Below the pieces are notes generated by a model, which was given only the letters and a program-made list of their open reading frames with translations, was not told the origin of the DNA and did no database searches. From IMG/VR virus record IMGVR_UViG_3300005764_000074, positions 1 to 26,133 of that record: a stretch of 26,133 nucleotides of DNA. The stretch is one strand, 5' to 3'. Shown here piece after piece: positions 2,583 through 23,162 of the stretch; the first letter of the stretch is position 1, and each line of letters begins with the position of its first letter. This DNA comes from a virus (lineage: Duplodnaviria; Caudoviricetes). The translations under genes and the position numbers were made by a program.

Positions 2583-2886
2583 GTGTGCGATGATGTCGTC
2601 CATGACGCCAGTTGCCATCGCCCTGCGCGGCAGCGCCTGCTAACCGGGAGATGTACCCGCTGCGGGAGCCAGCCCGTCCCTGACTCTCGCCTCTGTAAGC
2701 GCTGCCGGATCGACACGAAACGGGACCGCCGCCGCCGCTACAACGTCCGCAAGTCCGCCGGCCTCTGCGTGAGCTGCGGCAGACAACTTGGTCCGCTGCA
2801 GCAGCTGCCTGATAAAGAGCGCCGCCGCGCTGCGTCGCTGCGTCTCCTGCAAGAAGGAGGGGAGCCATCATGGCCAGGACCTCTAA
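2583..2886 (+). pseudogene. Frameshifted CxxC-repeat (Zn-finger) gene
   Basis: One frame gives GRCTRCG, LCKRC and GLCVSCG. The +1 frame from about 2788 continues RCSSC...RCVSC and stops at 2884-2886, overlapping the portal start. Confidence 0.5.
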
Positions 2887-5800
2887 TGCCGGGGCCTCCA
2901 AGACCGAGACCCCGACCCCGACCCCGAACGGCTCTCCTGTCGATAACGCCGTCGACCCCGCCACCGCCTCCCGCTACTTCGACATGGTGGCGAACATCAC
3001 GTCCGTTCGGTCGAACCTCTTCCAGAAGCTGTTCGACCCGCGCCGCAACATCGACGACGAGTGCGGCTACCCGCAAACGGAGCAGACGGCCTGGGGCGCG
3101 ACCGCCATCGACCCGGACTTCTACCGCAACCTTTACGACCGGGAGGCCATCGCGACCCGTGTCGTCGAGGTCATGCCGCGGGAGTGCTGGCAGATGACGC
3201 CCATGGTCTACGAGGACGAGGACCCGGATAACGTCACGGCCTTCGAGGAGGCCTGGGACGTGCTGGGGCAGCAGCTGCGCGGCGAGCAGTGCTGGTACCA
3301 GGACGAGGAGGGCTCGCCGGTCTGGGAGGTGCTGCGCCGCGCCGACATCCTTAGCGGCATCGGCCACTTCGGCATCATCCTCCTCGGCCTCGATGACGGC
3401 CTGCCCCTCGACCAGCCAGCTGCCGGCGTCTCGACCCGGAAGCCGTTCGGCGGTGGTCCGCTCGGTGCTGGCGTGGACACCCCAGCGGCCGCCGGCACCG
3501 GCGACGGCAGGCAGCCGTACCCTTACCAGCCCGACACCGCCTCCAGCCCCTACGGCAGCATGGACCTCTACGGACCGGCCAAGTACCCGGCCGAACGGAC
3601 CGGCCACTCCCCCGGCAGCGCTGCCGCCGCCAACGCCTACCACGATCACGACCACGGTGCCTTCCACGACGAGGACCGCTCCCTTACTTCCCCCGTGGGC
3701 AACGCTACCCTGCCCGCCCCTCCGCCCGGCGCCGCCTACTTCGACCTGACCTCGAACACCTGGAGCGTGCCGGGCAAGGAGCGCACGAGCCGGCCCGTCT
3801 ACCACCTGGACCCGAAGACCGGCCTGCCGCGCTTGGAGCGCTGGGAACCCTACGCCACTGACCTCTCCCTCAACTCCCTGCAAGCCGAGGCCGTGGCGAA
3901 CGGCATGCCCGTCGGGGACGTGATGGATGAGTACACGGCCTCGGCCATCGACAACGCCCATGCTAGCGTGGTGCCGATGGGGCACGGCCCGGCCGATCTG
4001 CACCCCGGCTTCGTCCGCACCACGCCCCTGCCCGACGACGCAGGCGACCACGGACCGGACGACCACGGCAGTCGGGGACTACCCCACGGCCAGGGAGGTT
4101 CCCACGGCGATCAAGGACCACACGGCAACGGCACCACCGCCAACACAGGCACACCTATTTCTCCCAGGGAGCCGACCGGGGCCGGGCCAACGGCCAACGC
4201 CCCTGGCGATGCCTATACGCCACCGAACCCCTACGGCGATGCACCTGGCGGCTTCTGGCAGTCACCGGTCCCGGCCTACGGAGCCGCCATCGGCCAGGGT
4301 GCCGCCCTTGGCACCGACGCCCAGTACCTGAGCCCGCAGCTGTCGCCGCCGGTTGCCCCGAAGCCCCTGCCGGCCGGCACGCTTCGCAAGCTGCTGTTCG
4401 TACGTGCCTTCGACGAGGCCCTCGTGCAGATCGTCCAGTACGAGGCGAACCCGCTCAACCCACGTTACGGGCAGCCGATCATGTACCGGGTCACGCTTAA
4501 CGACCCGCGCGAGCTGCATAGCGGCGTCGGCCTGCCGATGGCGACGATTCGGGTGCACTGGTCGCGTATCATCCACCTTGCCGACAACCACCACACGGCC
4601 GGCAGCAGTGTCGTGTTCGCCGCCCCCCGCATGCGGCCCGTCCTCAACCGCCTGCTCGACCTCCGAAAGCTCTACTCCGGTTCGGCCGAGGGCTACTGGC
4701 GTAGCGGCTGCATGCCGATGACCGTCTTCAGCACGGTCCCTCAACTCGGTGGCGACGTCCGTATCGACCTTGGCTCGATCCGCGACATGATGGAGCAGGC
4801 GGAGAACGGTCTGCAGAGGTGGATCGCCCTCATGGGCATGTCTGCCTCGCAGCTGGCCCCGCAGATCGTGGACCCCGGTGGGCAGATCCAGGTCCAGCTG
4901 GAGGCCATCTGCATCAAGATCGGCTGCCCCGTGCGGGTCTTTAAGGGCTCCGAGCGCGGCGAACTGGCGTCCTCGCAGGACGACTCAGCTTGGAACGACC
5001 GACTGCGGGAACGCAACCTCGGCTACACCACGCCCAAGATCGTCGTCCCCTTCATCGACCGCCTCATCTCCCTCGGCGTCCTCCCGGAGCCGGGCAAGGG
5101 CAAGGCAGCGCCGACGAAGGAGCGGAAGTGGCTACCGAAAGCGCAGGCAGCGGCCGGCGCCGAGGGCGCTCCCGGTGCCGAAGGCGGACCCGGAGGCGGC
5201 CCCGGTGGTGGTAAGGGCAGTGAGGGCGGCCCCGGAGGCGGCCCGCTGGGGGCGGAGGGCGTCGGTATTGGTGCTACGGAGGGCGCCTCCACGCCCGCCG
5301 GCAACCGCCGAGCACAGGCCCGGCACACCGTCGCCCCCAACGTCTACGGCCCCGACGGCCGCGGTCGCTACCGTACCGTCACCTCCTTCGGCCGCGTTCT
5401 CATCCTCAACGCGGCCGGCAAGCCCGTCGGCGTCCAGACCAAGGGCGGCTACAGTATCGAGTGGCCGAGCCTGGATTCCCTCGGGGAGAAGGACAAGGCT
5501 GCCGTTGCCTTGCAGGCCACCCAGGCCATCGGCGCCTACGTGTCCGGCAACGTCGAGTCGATGATGACACCGATGGACTTCTACACACGCATCCTGCGGA
5601 TGGATGAGGAGGAGGCCCGCTCCATTATCGACAACATCACGGCGGCGCACGAGGAGGAGGAGACCATGACGATGCCCGCCCAGATCGGTGGCCGGCCGGC
5701 CGCCCCGCAGGAGGGTACCCAGGCCTTCGAGGACCGCGCCCGCAGGGACGCGCAGGCGCAAGCGCAGCAGGCGGAGGGTGCCCGTCGCTTCGATCGCACC

Positions 5801-6073
5801 GCCGGCTTGAAGGAGAAGTCGCTGGATAAAGGCCTGGCGGCATTCGGCGGCGGTGGCGGCGGCGGCGAGGGCGGTGGCGGCGGCGCGGGAGAGGGAGGGG
5901 CCGCCACCGCCACGACCCCCAAGGGCGGCGCCGCTCCGTGGGGGCGGGCACCGAACTTCGGCAAGCCGGCGCCGCCCGGCATGGAGCCGGAGGAGGAGCC
6001 CGCCACCAACGAGCGCCCCTCCACCACCACCGAGGACTTGCTGGCGAACGAGATGAGGAGGGCCATGAGGTGA
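2870..6073 (+). CDS. Portal protein, DUF1073-like, with large low-complexity insertions
   Basis: AAGGAGG SD. Conserved blocks LYDREAIATRVVEVMPRECW, RRADILSGIGHFGIILLG, NPRYGQP, VHWSRIIH, GSERGELASSQD and IEWPSL. Sits between terminase and MuF. Confidence 0.85.
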   Translation: MARTSNAGASKTETPTPTPNGSPVDNAVDPATASRYFDMVANITSVRSNLFQKLFDPRRNIDDECGYPQTEQTAWGATAIDPDFYRNLYDREAIATRVVEVMPRECWQMTPMVYEDEDPDNVTAFEEAWDVLGQQLRGEQCWYQDEEGSPVWEVLRRADILSGIGHFGIILLGLDDGLPLDQPAAGVSTRKPFGGGPLGAGVDTPAAAGTGDGRQPYPYQPDTASSPYGSMDLYGPAKYPAERTGHSPGSAAAANAYHDHDHGAFHDEDRSLTSPVGNATLPAPPPGAAYFDLTSNTWSVPGKERTSRPVYHLDPKTGLPRLERWEPYATDLSLNSLQAEAVANGMPVGDVMDEYTASAIDNAHASVVPMGHGPADLHPGFVRTTPLPDDAGDHGPDDHGSRGLPHGQGGSHGDQGPHGNGTTANTGTPISPREPTGAGPTANAPGDAYTPPNPYGDAPGGFWQSPVPAYGAAIGQGAALGTDAQYLSPQLSPPVAPKPLPAGTLRKLLFVRAFDEALVQIVQYEANPLNPRYGQPIMYRVTLNDPRELHSGVGLPMATIRVHWSRIIHLADNHHTAGSSVVFAAPRMRPVLNRLLDLRKLYSGSAEGYWRSGCMPMTVFSTVPQLGGDVRIDLGSIRDMMEQAENGLQRWIALMGMSASQLAPQIVDPGGQIQVQLEAICIKIGCPVRVFKGSERGELASSQDDSAWNDRLRERNLGYTTPKIVVPFIDRLISLGVLPEPGKGKAAPTKERKWLPKAQAAAGAEGAPGAEGGPGGGPGGGKGSEGGPGGGPLGAEGVGIGATEGASTPAGNRRAQARHTVAPNVYGPDGRGRYRTVTSFGRVLILNAAGKPVGVQTKGGYSIEWPSLDSLGEKDKAAVALQATQAIGAYVSGNVESMMTPMDFYTRILRMDEEEARSIIDNITAAHEEEETMTMPAQIGGRPAAPQEGTQAFEDRARRDAQAQAQQAEGARRFDRTAGLKEKSLDKGLAAFGGGGGGGEGGGGGAGEGGAATATTPKGGAAPWGRAPNFGKPAPPGMEPEEEPATNERPSTTTEDLLANEMRRAMR

Positions 6074-6375
6074 CCCGACACGAAGCACCGATGACCACTG
6101 ACCAGCAGCGTGCCGTCATGCGGGCGGCCGGCCGCGTGCTGAGGGAGCAGGTGGATGCCCTGAGAAACCAGCTCCGCGCCGAGCTCGTCGTCAACGCGGC
6201 CACGCTCGACCTGACGCCACTGGTCGACGCCCTCGAGCGCGGCCTGGGCCGGCTGGCGGCCGCCGTCGAGGCGCTCGTCGATGCCGAGCACGCCGAGGCC
6301 GACCAGCGTGCCACTCTGGCCCGCGCTGTCGCCGGGGAGGCCCGCACTGTTACCGAGACCGAGGGAAATCAATGA
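6070..6375 (+). CDS. Hypothetical helical/coiled-coil protein
   Basis: GTG overlapping the portal stop (GTGA) with GAGGAG upstream; alternative ATG at 6091. High GC3 codon usage. Confidence 0.65.
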   Translation: MTRHEAPMTTDQQRAVMRAAGRVLREQVDALRNQLRAELVVNAATLDLTPLVDALERGLGRLAAAVEALVDAEHAEADQRATLARAVAGEARTVTETEGNQ

Positions 6376-6431
6376 TCCGGCTGTCCATCGGCCAGCCCCG
6401 TTCGAGGCACCACCCGCAGGAGACCCTACAC

Positions 6432-6764
6432 ATGGCGTTCACACTCACCGCTGACCAGCAGGTTGACGTGTCGCTGGTCATCACCGACGCGCACGGCAAC
6501 CCCGCCCCCGTCGATGGCACCCCTACCTGGGAGGCGACCGACGTGACGAAGGTCACCCTCAACCCGTCCCCGGACGGCCTGTCCGCCGTTATCGCCGCCA
6601 AGGGGCCGGTCGGCACCAGCCAGGTCCGGGTCACGGCCGACGCCGACCTGGGGGCCGGTGTCACCAACATCATCGGCCTCCTGGATGTGCAGGTGGTTGG
6701 CGGCCAGGCGACCGTCATCCAACTGCAGCCCGGCACGCCCGGCCCGAAGCCGGCGCCGCTCTAA
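6432..6764 (+). CDS. Ig-like beta-sandwich protein, possible virion surface protein
   Basis: AGGAG SD before ATG 6432 (track start 6372 also possible). DAHGNP turn, a conserved W and alternating beta-strand pattern are typical of bacterial Ig-like domains. Confidence 0.65.
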   Translation: MAFTLTADQQVDVSLVITDAHGNPAPVDGTPTWEATDVTKVTLNPSPDGLSAVIAAKGPVGTSQVRVTADADLGAGVTNIIGLLDVQVVGGQATVIQLQPGTPGPKPAPL

Positions 6765-6779
6765 GGACGAGACCCAGCC

Positions 6780-9700
6780 ATGGACGACCTGACCGACCCG
6801 CTGACCATCACCGTCAACCCCTTCGTGAGTGAGGCCCAGCGCCGCGCCTGCTACGCGGCCCACGACCCGAACTGGGACTGCGCCGAGTGGGAGCGCCACA
6901 CGAAGGGGCGCTCCCTCCCCTCCCGCAAAGGGGGTAAGGGCGGTGGTCGTGGTCGCCGTCGTCGGATCGCCGCTAACAAGCGTCGTCTCACCGCCAACCG
7001 TGGCCCGCGCCGTGGCATCTCCCCGAACAAGTACGACCCGACCCGCACCTCGACGCTCCGGCGTGCCTTCGTCGCCCGCCTGCGTAAACGCTTCGCCCTG
7101 CTAAAGGGCCGCATCGTCAAGCACATCGGCGAAGGCGACGCACTGGGGCTAAAGGACCAGCCCCGACCGGAGCCCACCGTTCTCACGACCCCGACGACGA
7201 ACAACCCCGGGCAGATCCGCGACGAGACCGGTCTCTACGGCCCCGGCATCGGTATCGAGATCCCGCGCGAGCAGATGCCACAGATCGCCGCCTCCGACCT
7301 GCCGCGCCTGGAGACGTGGCTGCGGGGGCGGGGCGTCCCTGCCGCCCACGCTACCGCAGCGGCCGACTCCCTCGCCCCGACGCAGTCCCGCTTCAAGCAG
7401 TCGAAGGTCGATGCCATGGGGGACGGGGTCCTCGATGACCCTATCATCGTCAGCCAGGACAACTACGTCCTTGACGGCACGCACCGGTGGGTGCGGGCCT
7501 GGCAATCGGACCCCACCACCCCACTCCCCGTCCTACGTGTCGGCCTCCCCGTGCGCGACGCCGTCAGCCTACTCCGCTCCTTCCCTCTTGCGGACTATGC
7601 CACGAACGCAGGTCAGGGAGCCCGCGCTGGTACCGCCGTCTACCGCTCCTTCCTCCACGACGGCCGCCTTGCCTACCTCGCCGTCAACGCCCTGGTCGAG
7701 GTACCGGACGTCCGTCAGCACGACTCCTACAGCTGCGGGGCCGCTGCCGCCATGAGCGTCGGCCGTTACTTCGGTGTCGGCCCGGAGTCGATCACCGAGT
7801 GGAAGTCCCTGCTGGACACGGACAAGAGGGACGGCACCGACGTCGTCCCGCTCGTCGCCTACCTGCGCTCCCTGGGCCTCGGCGTCCGGGCCGGCACCGG
7901 CATGACCCTGGACGATCTGAAGCGGCACACGAGCGCCGGTCTCCCGGTCATCGTTGCCGTGCAGGACTGGGGCCCTAGCGTCCCGACGCCCTCCTCCGTC
8001 TCCAACGGCCACTACCTGGTCGTCATCGGCGTCGACCACGGCTACGTGTTCGTGCAGGACCCCGCCGTGCACCCGCCTGCCGGCGGCATCCAGGCCCCTG
8101 GAAGAAAGATGATCGAGGAGGACCGCTTCGACAGCCTCTGGCACGACACCGACGCTGACGGTAGCATTCTCGACCACTGGGGCGCCGTCGTCTCCGCGCC
8201 CGAGCCCATGGGAAATTACGACCCGTCCCAGCCTCGTGGTCACGGCGGCCGCTGGACGAAGGGCAGCGGCGCCGCCCTGGCCCCGCTTCCGCCCTCGCCC
8301 CCACCCGTGCCGGCCATCCCCCGTGCCCGCCAGGCCCCGAACGTCGAGAAGGACAGCGACGGCGACGGCATCACTGACACGGCCCGCGTGGGCGTGCCCG
8401 GCAACGCCGTGCCACCGCCGCCGCCAATCCCGGCCCTGCCTAACCTCTCCCCTAGGGAGCGGGAGGTGGAGCAGTCCTTCATCCGCGCCTACGAGGCAGA
8501 CCCGGATAAGGTGGCGGCCAACTACCGCTCCCTTGTAACCTCCCAGAAGCCGCCGCCGACCTTCGCCACCGACGATAGCAAGGTCCTGACCGAGGAGTGG
8601 TCCCACCCGGACCCAGCCGAGCGCAGCGTCAACCGGGCCACGCTCAACAACGCCCTCCATCAGACCGCCAACGCCATCGCGAAGCGGGCCTTCCTCCAGC
8701 ACCTGGATACCATGGAGCCGGGCCAGGAGATCCTGGTGACCGTCGGTGGCTGCGGGGCCGGCAAGGGCTTCGCACTCAAGAACGTCCCGGAGGCCCTGGC
8801 CCTCAAGTCCCGCTCCCATGCCGTCTGGGACAGCGCCGGTGACCAGAACGCGACGGAGAATCCCTGGATCCAGCGGGAGGCCGAAGCCCGCGGCCTGCGC
8901 GTCAACTACGTCTACGTGGACGCCGACCCGGTGACGCAGTGGGGTCACCCGGACCGCGGTGTCCTCAAGAGGGCGCAGGACCCGAATGACGGCCGCATGG
9001 TCGACGCCTCCGTGTTCGCCGACAGCTACGTGATCGGTGCTAGCAACATGCGGACCTTCCACGACCAGCATAAGGACAACCCCAACGCCTCCTTCGTCTT
9101 CCTGGAGAACCGCGGCACGCCACGGCAGATCGACCACATCCCCGACCCCGGCATCGACCGGCACGAGCTGCGCGACTACGCGGCATCGGTCGCCGCCATG
9201 TGTATGGCCTGCCCGCCGCACGTCAAGGCCGGTGCCACGCAGGGTGCCCGCATCTGGACGGCGAACGCGGACACGGGGACGACGAACGCCCGGACGTCCC
9301 ACATCCCTGCCGCCGCCCTGGCCGCTGCCGCCCTCAGCGCCGCAGCAGGCAGGCCACCCGACCCGGACGACCCGGAGCTGGCGTGGTGGCGGGAGGACGC
9401 CGACCGCCTCAATGCCCTGGGGGAGGAGACCCGCCGCCGCCAGCTGACGGTGAACTACCACCCCGACCAGCCGCGTGACCGCCGAGGTCGCTTCGGCAGC
9501 GGCAGCGGCGACACCGCCCCTACTGCCGTAGCGCAGACCTCGACGCCGGCCTTCAGGGCCTGGTTCAAGGACAGCACCGTCACCCACGAGGACGGCAGCC
9601 CGCGCGTCGTCTACCACGGCACGACCGCCGACTTCGACACCTTCAAGTTCGGCCACGAGGTCGACCCGCACAGCAACCTGGACGAGATGCTGGGGGCTCA

Positions 9701-12700
9701 CTTCGCCGAGGACCCGACCCTTGCCGAGTCCTTCGTGCAGGAGCGCGGCGGTTGGGACCGTGACCCGGGCGTCGCCGAGGGTGGCCGCCTCCTGCCGGTC
9801 TACCTGTCCCTGCAGAATCCGCGTGTTGCCCCGCAGCGCATCGTCCCCGCCACCGGCGAGCTAGAGCACGATGCCACGGCCATCAACCGTGACATCATGA
9901 ACACGGTGATGCCGCATGACAAGGAACTCTTCACCGCCTGGGCTCAGCGCTCCCGCATGCTGACCGCCGGGCAGGCAGGCGAGATCTTCGACCGCCTCGG
10001 CAGGGGTGAGTCGATCGGCGGTCACGAGTACAACGGCCTGGCGGCACACGACGTTCACTCCAAGTACGCGGTCCCCGGCGAGCACCCGGTCGCCGGCTTC
10101 ATGCGCAACTACGACAGCGCCGGTATGATGCTCAAGCCGCACGAGAAGCAGCATTTAGTCGACCGCTACAAGGAGATCCTCCAGTCCCAGGGCTACGACG
10201 GTATCGTCTACACCGACACGGCCCCGATGGAGAAGGGCAAGACTTCGCAAACAGCTTACATCGCCTTCCGGCCGCAGCAGGTCAAGTCCGCCTCCGGCAA
10301 CAAGGGCACCTTCGACCCGACCTCCCCCAGTATCCTCAACTGGGACCCGGACCAGCCACGGGACGAACACGGTCGCTTCGGTAGTGGAGGCGGCGGTTCC
10401 ACGGCACCATCATCTATTTCCTCCAGGGAGCCGGCCGGGGGGGAGGACACGGAGGAGCGTCACTCTGATGCCGAGCTGTCTGGGGCCGGCGTCCCGCGCT
10501 CCCTATTCGGCAAGATCGCCTCCGCCGTCGGTGCCGTTCGGGACGCCCTCCACCGTACCGGCGTGCGATTGCACGTGGCGGCCCTGGCCCCTGATATCCT
10601 GGACACCATCGAGGATACGCAGCGGATCTACTACGCCGGCGGCAAGTCGCAGGCCCAGCCCCTCGCTCAGTTCGGCATCCCCCTCAGTGCCGGCCAGCTG
10701 ACCTTCATCGGCTCCCACGTTCTGGCCCTGGCCTTCCGCGGTGCCCGCGCCGCCGTTCGCAAGATGCGTGGCACGACCAACGCTGCCCTTACAAGCGACC
10801 AGTTGGTCGAACTGGCCGACGCCTACTTCCGTGCCCTGCATAAGGCCGTGCCGGAGCTGGGCACCCCTCCAACCTACGACTGGCTGGCGGGACACCTGCA
10901 GGCCCCGGCCGCCAATGCCGCGGAGTGGACGGACCTGTACGACCACGAGAAGCTGGAGGCGTTCCAGAAGTGGCTGGCCGGGCAGATGAGCGAACTGCTC
11001 ACCTCCGATGACGAGGAGGAGGCCTGGGATGCCTACATCCGGTCCGGCTTCGCGAAGGGCGCCGGCCGGGCCTTCGACGATGTTAGCAAGTCGAAGGCAT
11101 TCCAGGCCGCCCTCGCCGATAAGCTGGACTTCTACGACGGCACCCGCGAGCAGTTCCTGCGTGACTCCTTCGCCCAGCCCGTTGCTAAGGAGAAGGTCAA
11201 GCTCCTGGCGGCCCGCTCCTTCGACGAGATGGAGAACGTCACCGACGACATGTCCAACCGCATGAGCCGCACCCTCGTGGACGGCCTTGTCCGTGGTGCC
11301 TCCCCCCATGACATCGCCGACGACCTGGAGGGGAACCTGGACTTCTCTCAGGCCAGGGCTGAGACCGTGGCCCGCACGGAGATCATCCGTGCCCACTCGG
11401 AGGGCCAGCTGCAGGCGCTGGAGAATCTCGGCGTCGAGGAAGTCGGCGTGGCCGTGGAGTGGAGCACGGCGGGCGACGGCAAGGTCTGCGAGCTGTGCGC
11501 TTCCCTTGAGGGCGTGGTCCTCAAGCTAGACGAGGCCAAGGGGCTGCTGCCGCGGCATCCGAACTGCCGATGTGCATGGCTGCCGGCCAACGTCGGGGAG
11601 GACGACGAGGACCAGGTCTCTACCAAGACCGGCATCGACGCTGCCCTCAAGGACGCCGACCTGGACCCGGGCGACGTGGGCGTCTCCCCGAAACGCCCCA
11701 AGTCTATCCTTAATGCCCTCTACCCGGCCCGTGCCTACCCGTGGCCTATCACGCGTCGCCTCGGCACCGCCGCGGTCCTGGCGAACTACAACCCGGACCA
11801 GCCGCGCGACAGCTGGGGTCGGTGGGCCGGTGCCGGTGCCGGCGGACCTGGCACGCTCCCCGCTCCCCCGCCGGGCTTCAAGGGTGTCAGGGTCAAGGTC
11901 CACGGCGGCAGCCCGGCCTCTGCCGCAAAGCGACTTCGTGCCGTCCACGGCATCCTTGACCGACTGCCGCCGGCCGCCCGTAGGGCCGTCCGCGCCGAGA
12001 TGCCGAAGGTCAACTTCTACCAGGACCCCAAGGCCGTGACGGGGGCCTGGGAGAACGTCAACGGCGCGAGGGCACCGAAGGGCTATCTGGTTGCGGGCTT
12101 CTACGACCCCAACGACGGGCACATGCACCTGGACGGTGCCACGGAGAAACACGGCGAGACCCTGGAAGGGGTGTTTGCCCACGAGCTGGGACACGCCATC
12201 GACGGTAAGGACTCCGTGCACTCGGACAGCAAGGCATGGAGGGCGGCCTGGAAGTCTGAGATAGACACCACCGCCCCCGACGGTAGCGGCGCCCTTTCCA
12301 ACTACGCCCGTACGGACCCTTCCGAGGGGTTCGCCGAGTTCCACCGCTTCCTCATGACCGGCGACCACGACACCGTCCGCATTGTATTCCCCAAGTGCTG
12401 GGCCTACTGGGAGAAGCGGAATCTAATCGGCACCACCTCCGGCAGCCAGTTCCGCGGTCCTGCCGCCAGGGCTGCCGCCACCGGTGGGGACTTCGGCACG
12501 GCCGGTGGTAAAGGCGGCACGGCCGGCCGCCCCGGAGTTAGCGCTCCCGCCCGTAAGAGGACCAGGGGGCCCAAGGCTACCACGAACGTAGGCGCTACCA
12601 TGGGACTGCTACCGGACATCTTCCACCGCAAGCTGGTCGGCAAGGACGGTCGGCATGCCGACCTCATCCGTGACCCGGACGCGCCGGCGGATGACGAACC

Positions 12701-13655: not shown

Positions 13656-15690
13656 GACGACCTACCCGACCTCCGAGCGCTTCACCGACGACCCGGGCTT
13701 CACTACCGACGCCCCTCCCGTCTCCGCCGCCGAACTGTGGATGGCGATCAGCGACCCGAGCCTTGTCGACTCTACCACCAACGCCTTCTGCCCCACCGGA
13801 CCGGGCGGGGGACGGGTCAACACCTGTCCGCCGCAGGCCGGGGCCGGGGCCGCTGCGGGCGCAGGCAGGAAACCGCTTAAGGCGGCACCCGCCGTCACCG
13901 CCTCCGGTGCCCCCATCCACGACCTCGGCACCCTCGACGGCCTGATGGCGTACATCGAGGGGCACATGTACGGGTCCAAGATGACGCTCCTGGACCTGCA
14001 GAAAATCGCCTTCCTGAATCCGAACGGCCTGCAGGGCGGCAGGCTGCTGGTACCGTTCACGCCCCATCCGACGGCGCCGCCGAAGCTAGCCAAGATGGCG
14101 GCCATTTTGCCTCCTGGCACCCAAATCGTGGCCAAGGCCGTGTCCGGCGCCCAGGGCCGCTCCGTGACCTACGCCCCCGCAATCACCTTCAAGGGCAAGT
14201 CGGTACCAGACACGCCGCCGCCGGGTCACGTCCTGCCGGTGGCGAAGGGCAGTGCGGCCGCTGCCGCTGCCGCTGCGGGCGCCGCTGCCGCTGCGGGCGC
14301 TGGTACCGCTGCGGGCGCTGGTACCGCTGCGGGCGCTGGTACCGCTGCCCCCGGGGCACCGGGACCCGCCGCCTCCAAGCTGCCTGTCGTTCCCATGCAG
14401 GCCAACACGGAGTGGGAGACCGGCAAGGCCCAGCCCGGCACCCTCAACGGCGTGGACTTCGGTACCGCACCGAAAAAGTTCTGGGAGCATACCAAGGACG
14501 TCGACGTCGGCGAGCCGCCCCCTGTCAAGCCTATCGGCCGGGTCGGTGTCCTTATCCAGGAGGACGACGGGCGTGTCTGGATCGCCCAGCCCACCAACGC
14601 CTACGGCAACCGCAGGTACACCATGCCCGGTGGCACCGTCGAGCCGGGCCTCACGAACCAGCAGAATGCCCTGAAGGAGGTGTGGGAGGAGACCGGTCTC
14701 CAGGTCGAGATCACCGGCCACGTCGGGGACTTCAGGGACTCTAACAACGGCGTTAACGGCCGCCTCTACGTCGGCCGCCGTATCGGTGGTGCGCCGTGGG
14801 GCGCCAAGGTCGAGCCGCATATCATCAGCCAGGCGACGGGCAAGCCGGCGGCGGAGTCGGACAGGGTCAATCTCGTTACCCCCGAGGAGGCGGCGAAGCT
14901 CCTGCACCGCACCGACGACCTGGCCCAGCTGATGACCGTGCACCCGCCCAAGCTCGACACGCCGGCCACCGGTACCGGCAGTGAGCCCCTCAAGAAGTTC
15001 CTGGAAGCGATGGGGCCGGCCGAGGCCGCCCACAACGCCAGGCACGCAGCCGCCGGCACGACGCCGGGGTGCTCCACGCTCCAGGCCGTGCAGAATCTCC
15101 GTGGCTTCAACGACCAGCCGAAGGTCGTGACGAAGGCCGCCTTCGACGCACTCATGGCGCAGGGCACTCATACCGAGGTGCTGCGGGGGGTGAAGGACGT
15201 TGGCTGGGGACGTGGTGCCCGGACCGCCGCTCAGCTGGCCGACGAGTTCAGGACCGGCGAGCACTACAGCGGCTGGGGGATCTTCGGCGCGGGGACCTAC
15301 ACCGACAGTACCACCAAGGCCGATGTAGCGAGGGACCCTATGCGTACCGCCAACGTGGCGTCTAGCTACGCGGGCCAGTACGGGAGCGCGGGCGGCGGCG
15401 AGGTGATACGCATAGCCCTCCCCAAGACGGCCAAGGTCATCAACGTGTCGGACCTGGAGAGAATGGTGCCGAGGTGCCCGCCCGACTTCAAGCCGAACGT
15501 ACAGGGTAGCGGTACCCGCGAGGAGCAGTGGCGCGGCGTGCAGGCGGCCCTGGCGGGGTACGATGCCATCTACCAGGACGGCAAGTCGATGATCCACGGC
15601 TCCTACGGCAAGGGGTTCTACGTCATCCTGAACCGCAGCATCTGCACCGTCCAGAACAAGGCACCGGCGCGGGGGTACACCATCCCGTGA
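13648..15690 (+). CDS. Nudix hydrolase domain plus C-terminal putative ART-like domain
   Basis: 8-nt overlap with the MuF stop and GAGG SD. Variant Nudix box GGTVEPGLTNQQNALKEVWEETGL (14629-14700). C-terminal LRG..GWGIFGAGTY..ASSYA..AGYDAI..YVILNR. Confidence 0.8.
   Translation: MPETTYPTSERFTDDPGFTTDAPPVSAAELWMAISDPSLVDSTTNAFCPTGPGGGRVNTCPPQAGAGAAAGAGRKPLKAAPAVTASGAPIHDLGTLDGLMAYIEGHMYGSKMTLLDLQKIAFLNPNGLQGGRLLVPFTPHPTAPPKLAKMAAILPPGTQIVAKAVSGAQGRSVTYAPAITFKGKSVPDTPPPGHVLPVAKGSAAAAAAAAGAAAAAGAGTAAGAGTAAGAGTAAPGAPGPAASKLPVVPMQANTEWETGKAQPGTLNGVDFGTAPKKFWEHTKDVDVGEPPPVKPIGRVGVLIQEDDGRVWIAQPTNAYGNRRYTMPGGTVEPGLTNQQNALKEVWEETGLQVEITGHVGDFRDSNNGVNGRLYVGRRIGGAPWGAKVEPHIISQATGKPAAESDRVNLVTPEEAAKLLHRTDDLAQLMTVHPPKLDTPATGTGSEPLKKFLEAMGPAEAAHNARHAAAGTTPGCSTLQAVQNLRGFNDQPKVVTKAAFDALMAQGTHTEVLRGVKDVGWGRGARTAAQLADEFRTGEHYSGWGIFGAGTYTDSTTKADVARDPMRTANVASSYAGQYGSAGGGEVIRIALPKTAKVINVSDLERMVPRCPPDFKPNVQGSGTREEQWRGVQAALAGYDAIYQDGKSMIHGSYGKGFYVILNRSICTVQNKAPARGYTIP
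14272..14343 (+). repeat. In-frame 18-nt tandem repeat (AAGAGT linker)
   Basis: GCTGCGGGCGCTGGTACC three times at 14290-14343, plus a degenerate copy at 14272-14289. Confidence 0.9.
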
Positions 15691-15720
15691 GAGTGGCTTA
15701 GCTAACTGCGAGGTACACCG

Positions 15721-16747: not shown

Positions 16748-16925
16748 AGGCGGGCGCGGCTGGTGCACGATTATGGGTGATGCACGGCGTCACCGCCATT
16801 GCCATCGCCAGACCCGGTGCTGAGTTGATGGTCTAACCCTCGTCCGGCCGGCTCTAGACCAGGCACCCCGCTTTCCGGTATGGTATGTGGACGTTACAGC
16901 CTCAGCCAAGGGCACGGCGTTCCCG

Positions 16926-18314
16926 ATGTCTTACCTCGAGCTGGTCGCTAACCTGGTCGGGCGCGTTCGTCGTGAATCCCACGACGGCAAGACCTTTCTC
17001 GTCGCACCGGCCGTCAGCATCGTCCCTGGCGTTCTCAGCGGCTCGAAGGGGGCGCTCTACTACCCGCCCGACGAGATCGCCCGGAACGTCACCGCCTGGG
17101 ACGGCACGCCCATCGTCGTCTACCACCCGATGCAGGATGGCCTGCACGTCTCCGCCTCCGACCCTGGCATCTACGACCAGCAGGGGGTCGGCTACCTTCG
17201 TCAGTCACGCATCCTCAACGGCGGCCGCCTCGGCCACGAGTTGTGGTTCGACGAGGCCAAGCTCAGCGCCGTCGACAATGCCCTCCCCTCCATCGCCCGC
17301 ATCCTTCCCCGCCTCCTCAAAGGTCGCCCTATCGAGCTGAGCACCGGCCTCTTCACCGACAACGAGGAAGCCCCGATGAACGCTCACTTCAATGGCCGTG
17401 GTTACACGCATATCGCCAGGAACTACCGGCCGGACCACCTGGCAATCCTTCCCGACCAGGTCGGTGCCTGCTCGATACGCGACGGCTGTGGCGTGCTGGT
17501 GAACAAGGGCGGCCCTACCGCTAACGTCTGGTCTGATGCCGCCCGGGAGGCCGCCAAGAGGGCCAGGCAAGCCTCCGCCAAGGCGAACAAGCACCCTACA
17601 CCGGGCTTCAACCCGTTCCGGTCCGAGGCCGACAAGAAGAAACTCGCCCGGATGAGCGGGGACGATCATCTTGAGGCCGCGGCCTTGCACAAGGCGGCAG
17701 CCAGGGCGAATGACGCGGCCGCCAACGCTATTATCCACAAGAATACGGGCAGGCTCAGCGTCGAGGAACTGGCCCGGGTACGCGACCACGAGGGTCAGGC
17801 AGGGACGCACAGGACGGCGGCTAAAGAGCACAAGAAAGCTGCCCGTCTGAAAGGAGCCACGGAGAACTCTTCCACGACCAACTGCGCCTGCGGCGGCACC
17901 TGCGGGAAGTGCCAGGCCGCCAACGCCGCTGACCGGGACGAGCGCGGCCGCTTCGCCGGTGGTGACCCTGCCCTCGCCTCCGCCTCCAAGGCATCTGCTT
18001 ACGCTGCCTCCGCCTCCTCCAAGAGCAACCCGGACTCCCAATCCGTTGCCGACGCCGCCCGCACTTCCTCCGCCCGCGCCGAGAAAGCGTCCATGGCGTC
18101 GTTCGCTGCCGCCGGCGGTCACGGACGGGCGATGCTCTCTCATCAGAACGCCGTTGCCTCTCACCGGGAAGCCAGCGTCGCTGCCGGGGAGACGGGCAAC
18201 CCGGACGCCCAGAGCGACCACCTGGAGGCGATGCGACAGCACCTGGCGGCAGCCGCCTCACACCGCTCTCGGGTGGGCGTGCGCAACGCCGACGACCCGC
18301 AATGCCCGACCTGA
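16926..18314 (+). CDS. Prohead maturation protease, DUF2213-like, with Ala/His-rich C-terminal extension
   Basis: VRRE..DGK..LV, GVL.GS.G.LYYP..EI, WDGTPIVVYHP, IELSTG and PDHLAILPDQVGACS..DGCG. Lies upstream of scaffold and capsid genes. Start 16887 (GTG) also possible. Confidence 0.8.
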   Translation: MSYLELVANLVGRVRRESHDGKTFLVAPAVSIVPGVLSGSKGALYYPPDEIARNVTAWDGTPIVVYHPMQDGLHVSASDPGIYDQQGVGYLRQSRILNGGRLGHELWFDEAKLSAVDNALPSIARILPRLLKGRPIELSTGLFTDNEEAPMNAHFNGRGYTHIARNYRPDHLAILPDQVGACSIRDGCGVLVNKGGPTANVWSDAAREAAKRARQASAKANKHPTPGFNPFRSEADKKKLARMSGDDHLEAAALHKAAARANDAAANAIIHKNTGRLSVEELARVRDHEGQAGTHRTAAKEHKKAARLKGATENSSTTNCACGGTCGKCQAANAADRDERGRFAGGDPALASASKASAYAASASSKSNPDSQSVADAARTSSARAEKASMASFAAAGGHGRAMLSHQNAVASHREASVAAGETGNPDAQSDHLEAMRQHLAAAASHRSRVGVRNADDPQCPT

Positions 18315-18401
18315 CCCAAGGGACGCCCCAAGGGCGGCCGTGCGCCGTCGATGAACCGTGCCCGCCGCACCACTCATCCCCCGGGACAAGGAGTACCACC
18401 G

Positions 18402-21188
18402 ATGCAATGTCCCGCTTGCGGGGCTCAGCTCGCCGAAGCTCATATCGAGGACGGTCGCTGCCCCAACTGTGGCGCCAACGTCAAGACACCGCTGTCGGTG
18501 CCCTCCGCGCAGCCGCCCGGCGCCCCCGTCCGGCCCTTCGGCCGCAACGACATGGAGGTCACCGGTGGCGTCGCCGAACCACTGCAGGCCGGTGGCACTA
18601 GATTTCCTCCAGGAGCTGCCCCGCGGGGGCCTACAGGCAACGTCTTCAGCCGCTTCTTCCACTCCCTCGGCGGCCTGCTCGGACTGGGGGGCCACACGGC
18701 CAACGCCACCTCTAGCCGTGCCGATGCCGCTGCCGCCTGCCCCGAGTGTGGTGGCAGTATGAGGAACGGCACCTGCCAGGACTGTGGCTACAACGATGGT
18801 AATGGCGACGGTAGCGGCAGGAACGGCCGTGGCGGTGGCGGTAAGGGCGGCCGCAAGGGCAGGGGTGGCAAGGGGAGCGACTGCCCCACCTCGAACCAGG
18901 ACTGCGATGAGGAGTGCGAGGACGACCTCTACAGCGAGGAGTGCGAGGAGTGCGAGGAGGGGGTGGGGAACGCCCGCCACTGTCCTGGCTGCAACATGGT
19001 CGTGTCCCCCTCGGCTACGAAGTGCCCGCACTGCGGCGAGGCAGTCGAAAACGCGGCGCCGTTCCAGTCCCGGCATGTAGAGACGGGCCAGTTCCTTCCT
19101 ACCAAGGGCTCCTCCCCCCGGCAGACCGGCGCTGCCGCTGCCGCCGGCCACGCCGCAGGCCAGCCACAGGGAGGCACCTCCGGGCAGCCGGAGGATGTGG
19201 GGTCGATATCCAGCCCGGACGAGGCCATCGAGGAGGAGGCCGCGAAACGTGGCATGTCGGCCGACGAGCTGAAGTCGCAGCTGGGCCTGCCGACGGGCAA
19301 AGGCCCGGCGCACAACTGCTACTGGGACTGGACCCCGATCCACAACGTCTTCGTCCTCCGCTCCCCGGCCGGTGCGGCCGTCGCCAACGAGGAGGGTAAC
19401 CACTGCTACGTTGTCAACCCCTTCGTCTCCGAACAGCAGCGCCGCTACCTGTGGGTGCACGAGCCGGAGATCGCTCACGCCTGGGCCCACGGCCAGCACA
19501 CCGGGGGAGGGGCTCGCCACACCATGCCGGCGACAACGGGTAAGGACGTCGCCGGCCCCCTGGCGGCGGCCGAGAGGAAGGCGCAAAAGAAGAAGGGCAA
19601 GGGCAAGAAACCGAAGGCCGCCGAGGCTGCCACGGGGAACGCCAGGATCGCGAACCAGGACGAGGAGGACGGCGAGGAGGACGGTGAGGGGGAGGGCGAG
19701 GAGGTGACCAACGCCGATTTCCGGCAGTGGAGGAGGCAACTCGTGACTATCGCACGTCGATCAAGCATGACGGACTTCGAGGCGGAGTGGTGGTCACGGA
19801 TGCCACCTCCCGCTCTGTCCCGTCTCATCACTGCCAATTGCGGCGGCCCCGGATCGAAGGTGCCTGGCCCCTGTAAAGGAGGTGCCGTCAGCCGTGCCGC
19901 CGCGGCTGCCTCCGGTAAGGCCAACGACTACAACTCTCATGCGGACGCGGTCCAGGCCCACTCGACCGCGGCCCAGACCCACGAGGCCCACGCCAAGGCC
20001 GCCCGGGAGGCCGGCAACGAGAAGGTGGCGGCGGCACACGACAAGCTGGCGGCGGCCCACCGGGACCGGCAGAGCGAACACGCCAGGGCGGCCGAAGCGC
20101 ACGGGGGTGTCGACTTCGATCTTGGAGATCACGGCGATCATGGCGCCGGCGACCACGGCGGCGAGGGCATCGACCTGGTCAAGGACAGTGGGCACGCAGA
20201 CACGCCGCAGGGTCACGATGCGTTCTGGGCCGGCGTGAAGGCTGACTCTCCTCACCATGCGGTCGATGCCGATACTCAGCATGCCGCCGGCAAGGCGCAC
20301 TGGGCGGCGATGAAGTCCACGGACGACAAGACGGAGAAAGCTTTTCATCAGGGCGAGGCCAAGCGCTACTTCGATAGGGCCAAGCAACTGGGTGGCGGCA
20401 AGAAATCGAAGCCTACGGGCAACCGTGGGCGTGTCACCAACAGAGGAGCAGTGAGAATGTCCCGGTTCAACCGCGACACCACGATCGAGTTCCTCGTCAC
20501 CAACTGCTCCTGCTGGGAGAACTCGCGGGATCAGTTGGAGGCGATGAGCAACGGACAACTACGGTTCCTGGCCGGTATGGCCCGGAACGCCAAGGCCGAG
20601 GGCAGCAACGCCGACACGGTCGACGGTGGTCCCGGCGACCTCCGCGCCGGCGGTGTCGAGGGGGAGAACTACGACCCCTCCGAGTCCTCGAGCGACTACC
20701 AGGACGACGATGACGACTTTCCGGAGAAAGCGCAGCGCGGCGTGCCCGCCAAGCGGAACCCGGCCAGCGCCACGCCGACCGGGAACCTGTCCCTGGTGGA
20801 CATGCTGCGCCGCTCCGACCACCCGGAGGACCAGGCCGCCGTTGCCAACATCGAGTACGCCGGCCGCCTGGTGGCGGAGAAGCGGCAGGCCCTCATCCAG
20901 CGTCTCACCTCCCGTATCGAAGACCCGCGCCTGCGACGGGCCATGGTGCAGAACTACGCCGCCAAGTCCACAGACGAGCTTGAGCTATTCGCCCGCACCC
21001 TGCCGTCGGAGGCGAGCGCGGGTCGCCCGCCGCGGCCCCTCTTCAGCGGCGTCGGGGCACGGGACCCGCTCTACTTCGGCGGCTCCGGTGGTGCCATCTT
21101 CAACCGACAGACGCCGGAGGACCGCGCCGACTTCCTCGACCTGCCACGGATGGAGTACGGCAAGGAGGCTGACGCTGCCTCCGGCTGA
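18402..21188 (+). CDS. Large scaffold-like head protein with Zn ribbons, His-rich helices and a C-terminal scaffold core
   Basis: AAGGAG SD 8 nt before ATG 18402 (track start 18351). Six CxxC(G) motifs, low-complexity linkers, helical C-terminus. Lies between protease and decoration/MCP genes. Confidence 0.7.
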   Translation: MQCPACGAQLAEAHIEDGRCPNCGANVKTPLSVPSAQPPGAPVRPFGRNDMEVTGGVAEPLQAGGTRFPPGAAPRGPTGNVFSRFFHSLGGLLGLGGHTANATSSRADAAAACPECGGSMRNGTCQDCGYNDGNGDGSGRNGRGGGGKGGRKGRGGKGSDCPTSNQDCDEECEDDLYSEECEECEEGVGNARHCPGCNMVVSPSATKCPHCGEAVENAAPFQSRHVETGQFLPTKGSSPRQTGAAAAAGHAAGQPQGGTSGQPEDVGSISSPDEAIEEEAAKRGMSADELKSQLGLPTGKGPAHNCYWDWTPIHNVFVLRSPAGAAVANEEGNHCYVVNPFVSEQQRRYLWVHEPEIAHAWAHGQHTGGGARHTMPATTGKDVAGPLAAAERKAQKKKGKGKKPKAAEAATGNARIANQDEEDGEEDGEGEGEEVTNADFRQWRRQLVTIARRSSMTDFEAEWWSRMPPPALSRLITANCGGPGSKVPGPCKGGAVSRAAAAASGKANDYNSHADAVQAHSTAAQTHEAHAKAAREAGNEKVAAAHDKLAAAHRDRQSEHARAAEAHGGVDFDLGDHGDHGAGDHGGEGIDLVKDSGHADTPQGHDAFWAGVKADSPHHAVDADTQHAAGKAHWAAMKSTDDKTEKAFHQGEAKRYFDRAKQLGGGKKSKPTGNRGRVTNRGAVRMSRFNRDTTIEFLVTNCSCWENSRDQLEAMSNGQLRFLAGMARNAKAEGSNADTVDGGPGDLRAGGVEGENYDPSESSSDYQDDDDDFPEKAQRGVPAKRNPASATPTGNLSLVDMLRRSDHPEDQAAVANIEYAGRLVAEKRQALIQRLTSRIEDPRLRRAMVQNYAAKSTDELELFARTLPSEASAGRPPRPLFSGVGARDPLYFGGSGGAIFNRQTPEDRADFLDLPRMEYGKEADAASG

Positions 21189-21322
21189 GGCGGGCGTTGC
21201 TAGTACCCGCCGCGTGCGCATTGGGACGGGCTCGGCCTGCCTTCGAGTGCATGGTGTGGTTGGTCGATGCCCGTCCCTCGAACCCAACCCCCGCCTGGGA
21301 CGGGGACAATCAAGGAGACAAC

Positions 21323-21805
21323 ATGAAGGGGACTGAGATCATTGTCAGCGCCTACCCGCGCGGGGTGAGGGAGGAGTGCGTCATCTCCGGCACCCCCAAG
21401 CCCGGAACCTGCCTGGAGATCGTGCCGGCAACGCTTCCGATCAACGGCCGCTTCACCTACCGCCTGGTGACGAGGGCCAACGGTAGCAAGGGTCCGGTGG
21501 TCATCGCCGAGAAGGACCGGCTCCAGGGCAAGACCGAGCTGGACGCCTACGTCTCTGGCACGCAGGGATTCATCTACTGGCCCCAGGCCGGCGAGGAGTT
21601 CAACATGGTCATCCGGGAGACGGTGGGCACCGGCACCGCCGGCATCGTCAACATCGGCGACCTGCTGGCGATCGAGGCCGGCACCGGCGAACTGATGGCG
21701 GCCGGTGCCCTCGCCTCGGCACCGTTCCAGCTGCTGGAGCACCCGTCGGAGCCGATCAAGGCCGACACCCTGCACTGGGTGAAGTACCTCGGCAACCAGG
21801 CGTGA
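21323..21805 (+). CDS. Head decoration/cement protein (putative)
   Basis: AAGGAG SD before ATG 21323; 160-aa beta-rich protein (PKPG..L, IGDLL....GTG.L) immediately before the MCP. Confidence 0.65.
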   Translation: MKGTEIIVSAYPRGVREECVISGTPKPGTCLEIVPATLPINGRFTYRLVTRANGSKGPVVIAEKDRLQGKTELDAYVSGTQGFIYWPQAGEEFNMVIRETVGTGTAGIVNIGDLLAIEAGTGELMAAGALASAPFQLLEHPSEPIKADTLHWVKYLGNQA

Positions 21806-21881: not shown

Positions 21882-21920
21882 CCCTCTAGAACTGCACTCC
21901 TGCTAAGGAGACCCTCACAG

Positions 21921-23162
21921 ATGTTCGTTCAGGACTACATCATCAACGGGATGGCGAGCGGCGAGGTGGCGGAGCGGATGAGTGGCGTCCGCTACGACCC
22001 CGGCCTGATGCGGCCCTACGTCGACGACCGCGGCATCCCCTGTGTGACCGTCAACACCGGCCAGGTCCGTGTGGACCCGAAGACCCGGCGCGCCGTCCCG
22101 GTCCTCGAGAAGCGACGCATCAGCGACCTGCAGGCCAACGGCATCAACGCCCCCGTCTTCAACGCCACCTCCCTGCGCAAGGAGGAGTGGATCGAGCTGG
22201 ACCGCGTCGTCCTGCGGGCGGCCCGCTTCCGCATGCGGGCCTGGGCCGACCTTGCCTCGACCAACTCCTTCGGTGGCTTCAACGCCATGGCGAAGATGAT
22301 CCTCGAATACGAGACCATGTCCGACCCCGGCGAGGCGATCGTCGATATGGACGGCCTCTCCGAGGGCCGCCGGGACGCGCCGAAGTTCCAACTCGAGGGT
22401 CTGCCGCTGCCCATCACGCACTCCGACTTCTCCTTCGCCTCCCGCCAGCTGGCCGCCTCCCGCAACTCCGGTACCCCGCTGGACACGACCATGGCGGAGG
22501 CGGCCGGCCGCCGTGTCGCCGAGACTATCGAGCGCACCCTCATCGGCGTCGACACCGGTGTCACCTACGGCGGCAACTCGACCCAGGTCGGTGGCTACGG
22601 CCGCACCTCCGCCGTCTACGGCTACACGAACTTCCCGGCCCGCCTCACGAAAACCAACGCCTACCGTCCCACCGGCACCGGCCGCAGCGGCACCGGCTGG
22701 GTCGCAGCCGACACGCTCAAGGACGTGCTGGCGATGCGCGACCAGCTCTACCTCGGCAAGTTCTACGGTCCCTTCATACTCTACCACAGCAACGACTGGG
22801 ACCAGTACATGGACAACGACTACATCCTGACCGGCGGCAACGTCGCGACGCAGACGCTGCGCGAACGCCTCCGGGCCATCGAGGGCGTCACCGACGTAAG
22901 ACGCCTCGACTTCCTCTCCTCGCGCGCGTCGGCAACCGGCGACCCCGCCAACATCCTGACGGCGTTCCCGTTCCGCCTCATCATGGTGCAGATGACCGCC
23001 GACGTCTGCCGGGCCGTTAACGGCATGGACATCACGACGGTGCAGTGGGAGACGATGGGCGGCATGCAGTTGAACTTCAAGGTGATGGCGATTCAGGTCC
23101 CCCAACTGCGCGCCGACTTCTACGGCAACTGTGGCATACTGGACTGCCAGGCTACCCTGTGA
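21921..23162 (+). CDS. Major capsid protein, HK97 fold (linocin/encapsulin-like phage MCP family)
   Basis: TAAGGAG SD. NATSLRKEEWIELDRVV, LPLPITHSDF, R.L.ASR..G.PLD, YGYTNFP, YGPFILY and FKVMAIQVPQLRAD..GNCGI. Strongly biased codon usage; expected position. Confidence 0.88.
   Translation: MFVQDYIINGMASGEVAERMSGVRYDPGLMRPYVDDRGIPCVTVNTGQVRVDPKTRRAVPVLEKRRISDLQANGINAPVFNATSLRKEEWIELDRVVLRAARFRMRAWADLASTNSFGGFNAMAKMILEYETMSDPGEAIVDMDGLSEGRRDAPKFQLEGLPLPITHSDFSFASRQLAASRNSGTPLDTTMAEAAGRRVAETIERTLIGVDTGVTYGGNSTQVGGYGRTSAVYGYTNFPARLTKTNAYRPTGTGRSGTGWVAADTLKDVLAMRDQLYLGKFYGPFILYHSNDWDQYMDNDYILTGGNVATQTLRERLRAIEGVTDVRRLDFLSSRASATGDPANILTAFPFRLIMVQMTADVCRAVNGMDITTVQWETMGGMQLNFKVMAIQVPQLRADFYGNCGILDCQATL

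Follow-up and report, generated by a model that had tools for sequence, protein, structure and literature searches.

Comparative evidence for probable asparagine-directed processing of head proteins and cassette-delimited enzyme cargo in a tailed phage with a divergent prohead protease

Prohead proteases that act at short repeated motifs are already known, as are polyvalent cargo proteins. The cleavage motif of phage T4 is L/I-x-E, and both T4 gp21 and phiKZ gp175 cut after Glu; gp21-type enzymes also trim themselves at the ends of the protease domain. Herpesvirus assemblin cuts after Ala in V/L/I-x-A↓S (here and below an arrow marks a cut bond, known or proposed). The mapped specificities of such enzymes are few, namely Glu (T4, jumbo phages) and Ala (herpesviruses). 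Here we analyze the head module of an uncultured virus of the Caudoviricetes on a 26.1-kb viral contig (IMG/VR record IMGVR_UViG_3300005764_000074; the whole stretch of 26,133 nucleotides is called the window), and report comparative evidence that its prohead protease probably cuts head proteins after asparagine (Asn) within the motif [TVAILM]-x-N.

Two described systems are relevant to the cargo of such heads. The consulted part of a report on phage SPN3US (PMC10052503) describes a protease, gp245, that uses a defined short motif repeatedly, with propeptides holding several copies and with many head-internal and ejected proteins being processed. For polyvalent proteins, release of the domains by embedded peptidases has been proposed in the consulted sections of Iyer et al. 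(2017; PMC5512222) and Jamet et al. (2017; PMC5576092).

The head module of the window (GC 0.67-0.70) lies with its features on the + strand in the gene order portal, MuF, Nudix, protease, scaffold, major capsid protein (MCP), which is the same in relatives and places the protease gene between the portal on one side and the MCP on the other. Motif abundance was scored as the number of [TVAILM]-x-N matches over all Asn of a protein and compared with 2000 whole-protein shuffles and 3000 shuffles within 20-residue blocks. The motif accounts for 23/34 Asn in the portal protein (2870..6073, 1067 amino acids [aa]; PF06381 E=1.1e-11, phrog_146 E=2.6e-41; shuffle mean 11.9), for 39/67 in the MuF polyvalent protein that adjoins it (6780..13655, 2291 aa; Pfam and PHROG matches; shuffle mean 24.7) and for 24/40 in the scaffold-like protein (18351..21188, 945 aa; shuffle mean 12.3), and in each of the three none of the 2000 shuffles reaches the observed value. 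For the protease with its scaffold-like tail (16887..18314, 475 aa from a GTG start; phrog_760, unknown function, E=6.9e-27; the database copy starts at M14 and has 462 aa) the count is 14/22 with a shuffle mean of 8.4 (P=0.012). Block shuffles, which keep local composition, reach the observed value in 1, 1, 0 and 44 of 3000 trials for portal, MuF, scaffold and protease, respectively. When the four proteins are pooled, 100/162 Asn (p=8e-12) have T, V, A, I, L or M at position -2, where the background fraction is 0.35. In this -2 test Asn is the sole outlier among the 20 residues, Ala being next at 0.41, and the signal is specific to -2, with Thr found 31 times vs 9.3 expected and Val 18 times vs 9.0; around Asn there are also weaker preferences, for Pro at -3 and for Ala or Tyr at +1. 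No aliphatic excess of this kind is seen before Glu, either in the window proteins or in the tails of protease homologues. No overall enrichment is found in the Nudix protein (13648..15690, 680 aa, NUDIX domain at 298-366; PF00293 E=1.9e-11; 9/22), the MCP (21921..23162, 413 aa, DUF6260; PF19774 E=1.7e-12, phrog_771; 5/18), g233 (2/7) or the small flanking ORFs.

An earlier note on this DNA, made from the letters alone, had drawn attention to the motif and proposed that the protease cuts after Asn. All 15 Asn coordinates that it gave for the MuF protein are in frame with the tripeptides it named; the sites it placed in the portal, at Nudix N45 (13780), in the protease tail (17502, 17523, 17880, 17922) and at MCP N81 (22161) are present, and its manual count of more than 20 scaffold sites is borne out. 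Of the other head proteins that it named, portal, scaffold and protease are enriched in the motif, and Nudix and MCP are not enriched overall. The comparison with shuffled controls and non-head genes that it suggested yields enrichment in head proteins only.

The enrichment recurs among related phages, for which the earlier note had also called. The protease family is large, with more than 1219 homologues in the protein database and about 640 stretches from a profile scan of viral contigs, and includes cultured Klebsiella and Citrobacter phages. In five relatives found with the protease domain, the motif covers 26/34, 25/39, 21/29, 17/21 and 13/17 Asn of the protease-scaffold ORFs. The C-terminal non-conserved tails were analyzed for 117 of the 119 listed non-self database homologues, two that lack the DGCG landmark used for splitting having been left out; 1478/2251 Asn fit (0.66 vs 0.36; per-protein median 0.67), with Val 3.4-fold and Thr 3.3-fold above background at -2. 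The contig scan added 80 further loci, and clustering at 85% identity left 67 non-redundant relatives. Among these, 0.642 of the Asn in protease-scaffold ORFs fit the motif against a background of 0.353 (p=2e-176), and smaller excesses are seen in the portal (0.441 vs 0.347), the ORFs between protease and MCP (0.512 vs 0.414), the MCP (0.488 vs 0.402) and MuF (0.412 vs 0.352). The 410 ORFs downstream of the MCP (tail genes) give 0.407 vs 0.398, which is not significant, and genes before the portal give 0.385 vs a background of 0.364. An enrichment limited to head proteins is what one would expect of a motif that has a role only in proteins exposed to a protease within the procapsid.

These comparisons also bear on whether composition or codon-level effects could have produced the enrichment as an artefact, a possibility for which the GC-rich genome and the rarity of Asn might speak. 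Neither whole-protein nor local shuffles reproduce the enrichment, the codons of Val, Thr, Ile and Leu have no bases in common, and relatives with a GC content of 0.50 to 0.64 are also enriched while tail genes of the same contigs are not. The probability of an artefact is therefore negligible, and this explanation was rejected on the grounds of the shuffles, the lower-GC relatives and the tail-gene controls.

The protease itself has the T4 gp21/herpesvirus capsid-protease (assemblin) fold. Its catalytic domain (residues 27-206, 16965..17504) is bounded by V-A-N22 (16950) and L-V-N206 (17502), and H80 (17124), S152 (17340) and H184 (17436) are invariant in 34 sequences, in a His-Ser-His order which, judged from sequence order, is that of assemblin. 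A Pfam search with the window protease at E<=10 returns no DUF2213 match and only a chance GON match, and a sequence search against solved structures returns nothing significant. A precomputed PF09979 (DUF2213) match is present in 8 of the 120 homologues listed, and one relative scores 25.9 bits vs a cut-off of 22; in both the window and phage TLS the protease is paired with a Phage_portal_3 (PF06381) portal. By its fold the protein is a predicted capsid-maturation protease, and by sequence it is a divergent sister of DUF2213 rather than a member. The label "DUF2213-like" used in the earlier note thus holds through the relatives and not for the window protein itself.

Conserved V/T-x-N sites lie where processing is expected: two flank the protease domain, one is portal N42 and one is MCP N81. 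In the protease alignment N22 is Asn in 61/68 sequences and N206 in 60/68, both at the ends of the catalytic domain, and two tail sites, N332 (48/68) and N438 (49/68), are also conserved. The candidate N-terminal cut site of the portal, V-A-N42↓I (2987..2998), is Asn in 47/55 aligned portals, with V, I, L or T at -2 in all 47. MCP site V-F-N81↓A (22155..22166) is Asn in 56/56 aligned MCPs, preceded at -2 by V (43), T (11) or I (2) and followed by Ala in 51/56. The AF2 model of the MCP (pLDDT 78) has five stretches below pLDDT 50; one of them, residues 77-83, separates an N-terminal mini-domain from the first long helix (87-102). The alignment of shorter capsid proteins from cultured phages starts exactly at the N81 region; in Klebsiella virus KpV2811, whose protease homologue has the motif in 18/28 Asn, T-G-N46↓ASTLPKDVW of the MCP aligns to V-F-N81↓ATSLRKEEW (hhalign probability 99.8%). 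Cutting at N81, the predicted maturation site in front of the capsid fold, would take a leader of 81 residues off the MCP.

The MuF protein is polyvalent by content, since a single ORF in a virion-packaging context combines Peptidase_C39_2 (307-429, E=5.8e-10), ART-PolyVal (937-1178), Phage_Mu_F (1497-1599) and ADPrib_exo_Tox (2120-2267). Its true domain delimiters are conserved junction cassettes at N13, N479, N892, N1187, N1669 and N1977, and each of the six segments set off by them holds one recognizable domain: the C39-like peptidase (14-479), a P-loop (GGCGAGKG) domain with a weak Zeta-toxin-like match (480-892, window 8217-9455), ART-PolyVal (893-1187), MuF (1188-1669), a zincin-like domain with HELGH near residue 1810 (1670-1977, window 11787-12710) and an ADP-ribosyltransferase (1978-2291). 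The Zeta_toxin match (E=0.012) is below its curated cut-off, as is the ATLF metallopeptidase match of the HELGH module (E=8.5e-4, 19.5 bits vs a cut-off of 27.4), which makes this module a possible second embedded peptidase next to the C39-like domain. Stand-alone Zeta-toxin modules are found behind a cassette of the QPRD type in two relatives (L063 and L113).

Three cassettes recur. The QPRD cassette, [V/T/A]-x-N↓[Y/F/W]-x-P-x-Q-P-R-D-x-x-G-[R/K]-[F/W]-G-S-G-G-G, occurs four times in the MuF protein: as M-G-N479↓YDPSQPRGHGGRW after the C39 domain (8208..8255), T-V-N892↓YHPDQPRDRRGRF before ART-PolyVal (9447..9494), I-L-N1187↓WDPDQPRDEHGRF after ART-PolyVal (10332..10379) and L-A-N1669↓YNPDQPRDSWGRW after the MuF domain (11778..11825); a degenerate copy is at protease N346. 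The CPTG cassette, [V/T/L/I/A]-x-N↓[A/V]-F-C-P-T-G-x-G-G-G-x-D-x-x-C, stands before the C-terminal ADP-ribosyltransferase as A-T-N1977↓AFCPTGPGGGVKPDC (12702..12755) and at the start of the Nudix protein as T-T-N45↓AFCPTGPGGGRVNTC (13774..13827), where the cassette closes a leader made up of residues 1-45. The PFVS cassette, N↓P-F-V-S-E-A-Q-R-R, opens the MuF protein as T-V-N13↓PFVSEAQRR (6810..6845) and recurs in the scaffold-like protein as V-V-N356↓PFVSEQQRR (19410-19445); the scaffold-like protein also carries V-T-N718↓CSCW. In 68 sources there are 68 copies of the CPTG cassette, every one after Asn and all in head-interior proteins or unplaceable ORFs, with none in the MCP or downstream genes; of seven PFVS copies in the same sources, six follow Asn and the seventh is a protein start, M-PFVS. 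The QPRD cassette is found in 25 proteins of relatives, where it stands before or between domains of the ART, NUDIX, topoisomerase IB, Zeta-toxin, 2H/Acb1-like and MuF types. These domains are joined to MuF, to the C-terminus of the portal or to the tail of the protease. In one relative topoisomerase IB is fused behind a QPRD cassette to the portal (L062:1535-4063), and in another it precedes the MuF domain (L017:6126-8069), so that the capsid cargo of these phages may include a topoisomerase. In a further relative, a polyvalent protein of the MuF class (L040:2447-5743) matches the intein splicing domain PF14890 (E=5.6e-8, below cut-off).

Both the QPRD and the CPTG cassette occur beyond this phage group, including in phages with a PF04860 portal, and the residue that precedes them differs with the type of head. 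Loci were classified by tblastn with the portals and proteases of both types, and many with little flanking DNA are unclassified; the PF04860 portal was recovered by Pfam in 7/7 loci examined, two of these matches being below cut-off. With the head type of the window, Asn precedes QPRD in 14/22 cases and is found there or one position earlier in 18/22; in 30 QPRD cassettes from PF04860-portal loci the residue is K in 16, R in 4 and Asn in none. Before CPTG, Asn is found in 48/54 cases of this head type, compared with R in 31, K in 12 and Asn in none of 43 cassettes from PF04860-portal loci. Counted by contig group, Asn precedes CPTG in 15/19 groups of this head type vs 0/12 PF04860 groups, and QPRD in 4/8 vs 0/18. 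CPTG cassettes preceded by Asn have T, V, L, A or I at -2 in 85/91 cases. When the same enrichment test is applied to PF04860-type loci, the top residue is Lys (0.423 vs 0.371, p=9e-6), and in two protease-like ORFs of this type (weak head-maturation-protease PHROG matches) the motif is found at 34/49 and 36/52 Lys, Asn not being enriched. A tag that stays the same while its leading residue differs by head machinery is what one would predict if the cut site is matched to the resident protease.

Within PF04860-type loci (e.g., L225, L227 and L236) the Arg-type sites before CPTG are mostly E-x-R, with Glu at -2, and the Lys sites before QPRD have V, L or I at -2, so that subsite preference may differ within this lineage too. 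Contig L224, of unclassified head type, has six CPTG cassettes that all follow Leu (G-L-x-L↓A-F-C) and not Asn or Lys/Arg, a pattern that hints at a third class of protease specificity.

The dependence of the leading residue on head type also bears on two other ways in which the polyprotein could be divided. The embedded peptidases (C39-like at about 307-431 and the HELGH zincin-like domain near 1810) might cut it at the cassettes, the Asn being incidental; both domains are present in the MuF protein, and release by in-built peptidases is the proposal published for polyvalent proteins, according to the part of PMC5512222 consulted. Such a peptidase (one not of the prohead type) is present in just 1/25 cassette-bearing proteins of relatives, the same motif marks the MCP, portal, scaffold and protease, all without such peptidases, the residue at the predicted break tracks head type and not cargo content, and the ATLF match is below cut-off; this explanation is unlikely. 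Alternatively, Asn cleavage might be autocatalytic through a succinimide, with no protease needed. In the capsid proteins of nodaviruses and tetraviruses and in inteins Asn cyclizes to a succinimide, and Asn-Ala and Asn-Phe are self-cleaving bonds in those viruses. Asn directly precedes the proposed break points of the window. More than 100 short linear sites in disordered tails and linkers, however, cannot each supply folded catalytic surroundings, and Lys or Arg, which cannot cyclize in this way, stands in the same place in the other lineage, which makes autocatalysis very improbable.

Asn-directed cutting by the prohead protease, which the earlier note had put forward together with the freeing of fused enzymes, is favored by the comparative tests (head-only enrichment, conservation of sites, cassettes and the split by head type). 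In the mechanism we propose, the protease in the procapsid would bind an extended [V/T/I/L/A]-x-N stretch and cut after the Asn. It would process itself at both ends, degrade the scaffold together with its own tail, and shorten the MCP by 81 residues and the portal by about 42. The MuF polyprotein would be cut at the six cassette sites, freeing the C39-like peptidase, the P-loop module, two ADP-ribosyltransferases, MuF and the zincin-like module, and the Nudix protein would be freed from its 45-residue leader. By analogy with MuF-fused and polyvalent proteins, as described in the consulted part of PMC5512222, the released enzymes would then exit from the head along with the DNA; we give release and ejection about an even chance. 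The cassettes might, in addition, be portable "cut-here" cargo tags, in the forms Y-x-P-x-QPRD-x-x-GRF-GSGGG and A-F-C-P-T-G-x-GGG-x-D-x-x-C, that move with enzymes between unrelated head lineages while the one to three preceding residues are re-tuned to the resident protease: V/T-x-Asn in the divergent DUF2213-like lineage of the window, Lys/Arg where the portal is of the PF04860 type, and Leu in one other contig at least. This extension is tentative, its chances being rated somewhat short of even.

Several observations weigh against Asn-directed cutting or narrow it. The motif is equally common inside and outside recognized domains, with 12/21 Asn inside and 27/46 outside Pfam/PHROG envelopes in the MuF protein, and 5/8 in the Phage_portal_3 core of the portal (residues 478-741) vs 18/26 in the long low-complexity extensions that flank it on both sides. 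The bare tripeptide therefore does not by itself mark boundaries, and 39 sites over 2291 residues would put some site near any point by chance; the statement of the earlier note that almost every MuF domain boundary falls on the motif stands for the six cassette-linked sites and fails for the tripeptide alone, for which the overlay on domain boundaries that the note had proposed was unfavorable. Many matches could not be cut while the protein is folded, and the enrichment may in part be due to something else.

The equal frequency inside and outside domains would suit a different explanation, in which motif and cassettes are uncut structural or docking elements (scaffold, capsid-interior or DNA contacts, or folded knuckles) and the polyprotein stays whole. 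The two conserved Cys of CPTG might likewise belong to a small metal- or disulfide-stabilized unit with a structural Asn, and the invariance of N81 is by itself no proof of cutting. On the other hand, the residue before both cassettes varies with head type while the cassettes stay constant, N81 is in a low-confidence loop, the preference for beta-branched residues (Val, Thr) is confined to the single position -2, and the sites bracket the protease domain at the positions of gp21-type self-trimming. We regard uncut elements as improbable.

Further points against cutting after Asn concern the reach of the rule. The support is wholly comparative. The MuF-class proteins of relatives are only 1.17-fold enriched, Lys or Arg precedes CPTG in 2/19 contig groups of this head type, and cassettes share descent within a lineage, so the split between Asn and Lys/Arg could be partly inheritance. 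The lack of a DUF2213 match in the window protease counts here as well, together with an hhalign probability of about 1% against TLS gp33. Distant cultured relatives are not enriched, the motif being found in 10/23 Asn of SPN3UB and 10/32 of Brevundimonas phage StAshley.

In phage TLS (AY308796), which has a DUF2213 protease (E=4e-23) and a Phage_portal_3 portal, the mature MCP gave the Edman sequence ASDMGIW, and the loss of a 45-residue leader was surmised, according to the part of PMC11447400 consulted. Residue 28 of gp36, the deposited MCP (15087-16061), is the first of this peptide and comes directly after G-A-K-N-D, so that 27 residues are removed; a DUF2213 phage head thus removes an MCP leader and leaves a new N-terminal Ala. 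This cut follows Asp (K-N-D↓A) and not Asn, which also speaks against a general Asn rule, and TLS has no V/T-x-N enrichment, nor enrichment for any residue. Alignment of the window MCP family with the TLS MCP by hhalign gave a probability of about 1% and no usable alignment. Since neither MCP nor protease can be aligned, the equivalence of the TLS cut site is positional only, and the absence of enrichment in SPN3UB, StAshley and TLS makes the Asn rule a subfamily trait at most. In the protease-scaffold protein of StAshley (5950-7656), Asn mostly has an aliphatic residue at -1 and often Lys or Arg at -2 (PKAN, MKAN, IKAN, PKVN), a context that may represent the code in shifted form.

Other features of the window include a 352-aa ORF (89-1147) upstream of the portal, possibly part of the terminase and with no family match, and an HNH/HTH protein (2039-2527, + strand). 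The N-terminal third of the scaffold-like protein has several Cys-pair zinc-ribbon motifs (DZR at 19-45, Zn_ribbon_3 at 211-230) and Gly/Arg/Lys-rich runs, which are unusual for a scaffold protein. A 202-aa ORF without a family match (21197-21805) lies between scaffold and MCP, in the position of the head-decoration genes of KpV2811 and TLS.

The cassette findings suggest a general rule, in which injected enzymes are loaded as portal, MuF or protease-scaffold fusions and would be freed at tags whose leading residue matches the local protease. An Asn-ending code for a protease of the gp21/assemblin fold was not found in the literature searched, which excludes supplements, subscription papers and the original T1 proteome paper; nor were junction cassettes with a lineage-tuned leading residue, the terms QPRD and CPTG having returned unrelated work. 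A word search of the consulted text of PMC5512222 and PMC5576092 for linker, junction, motif and cleavage terms gave no description of cassettes, titles and abstracts on DUF2213 contained nothing on cleavage, and the only passage on asparagine met in the consulted parts of the prohead-protease literature concerned deamidation settings. If the rule is true, it would explain the disassembly of polyvalent proteins, it would make prohead-protease specificity readable from genomes alone, and the cassettes would be general capsid-cargo tags and a design rule for packaging foreign proteins into phage heads.

Compared with T4 gp21 (PDB 5JBL), which cleaves gp23, the scaffold core and internal proteins, the window protease is alike in being encoded in the head module, in the shape of the motif (aliphatic-x-cut residue), in the many scaffold and internal sites and in the self-trimming predicted for it, whereas the predicted cut residue is Asn instead of Glu, sequence identity is about 9%, the protease has a long scaffold-like tail, and the cargo consists of multi-enzyme fusions split by conserved cassettes. 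Set against the code of T4 and phiKZ as a whole, a short motif repeated in the scaffold, the capsid leader and internal proteins is found here, and Glu as the cut residue is not. The jumbo-phage proteases phiKZ gp175 and SPN3US gp245 share with it a repeated short motif across head proteins; no junction cassettes are described for them in the consulted parts of that literature, and the 26-kb contig gives no sign that the window belongs to a jumbo phage. Assemblin differs in being the enzyme of a eukaryotic virus without cargo polyproteins. The DUF2213 (PF09979) protease of T1-like phages, represented by TLS gp33, likewise follows a Phage_portal_3 portal, but TLS cuts after Asp, has an MCP of family PF09950 where the window has DUF6260, and lacks the V/T-x-N enrichment. 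With polyvalent and MuF-fused effectors the MuF protein has in common that several unrelated effector domains (ART, C39, MuF, zincin-like) are joined in one polypeptide of the virion module; the release published for those proteins is by embedded peptidases, whereas the sites at the junctions described here match the specificity predicted for the prohead protease.

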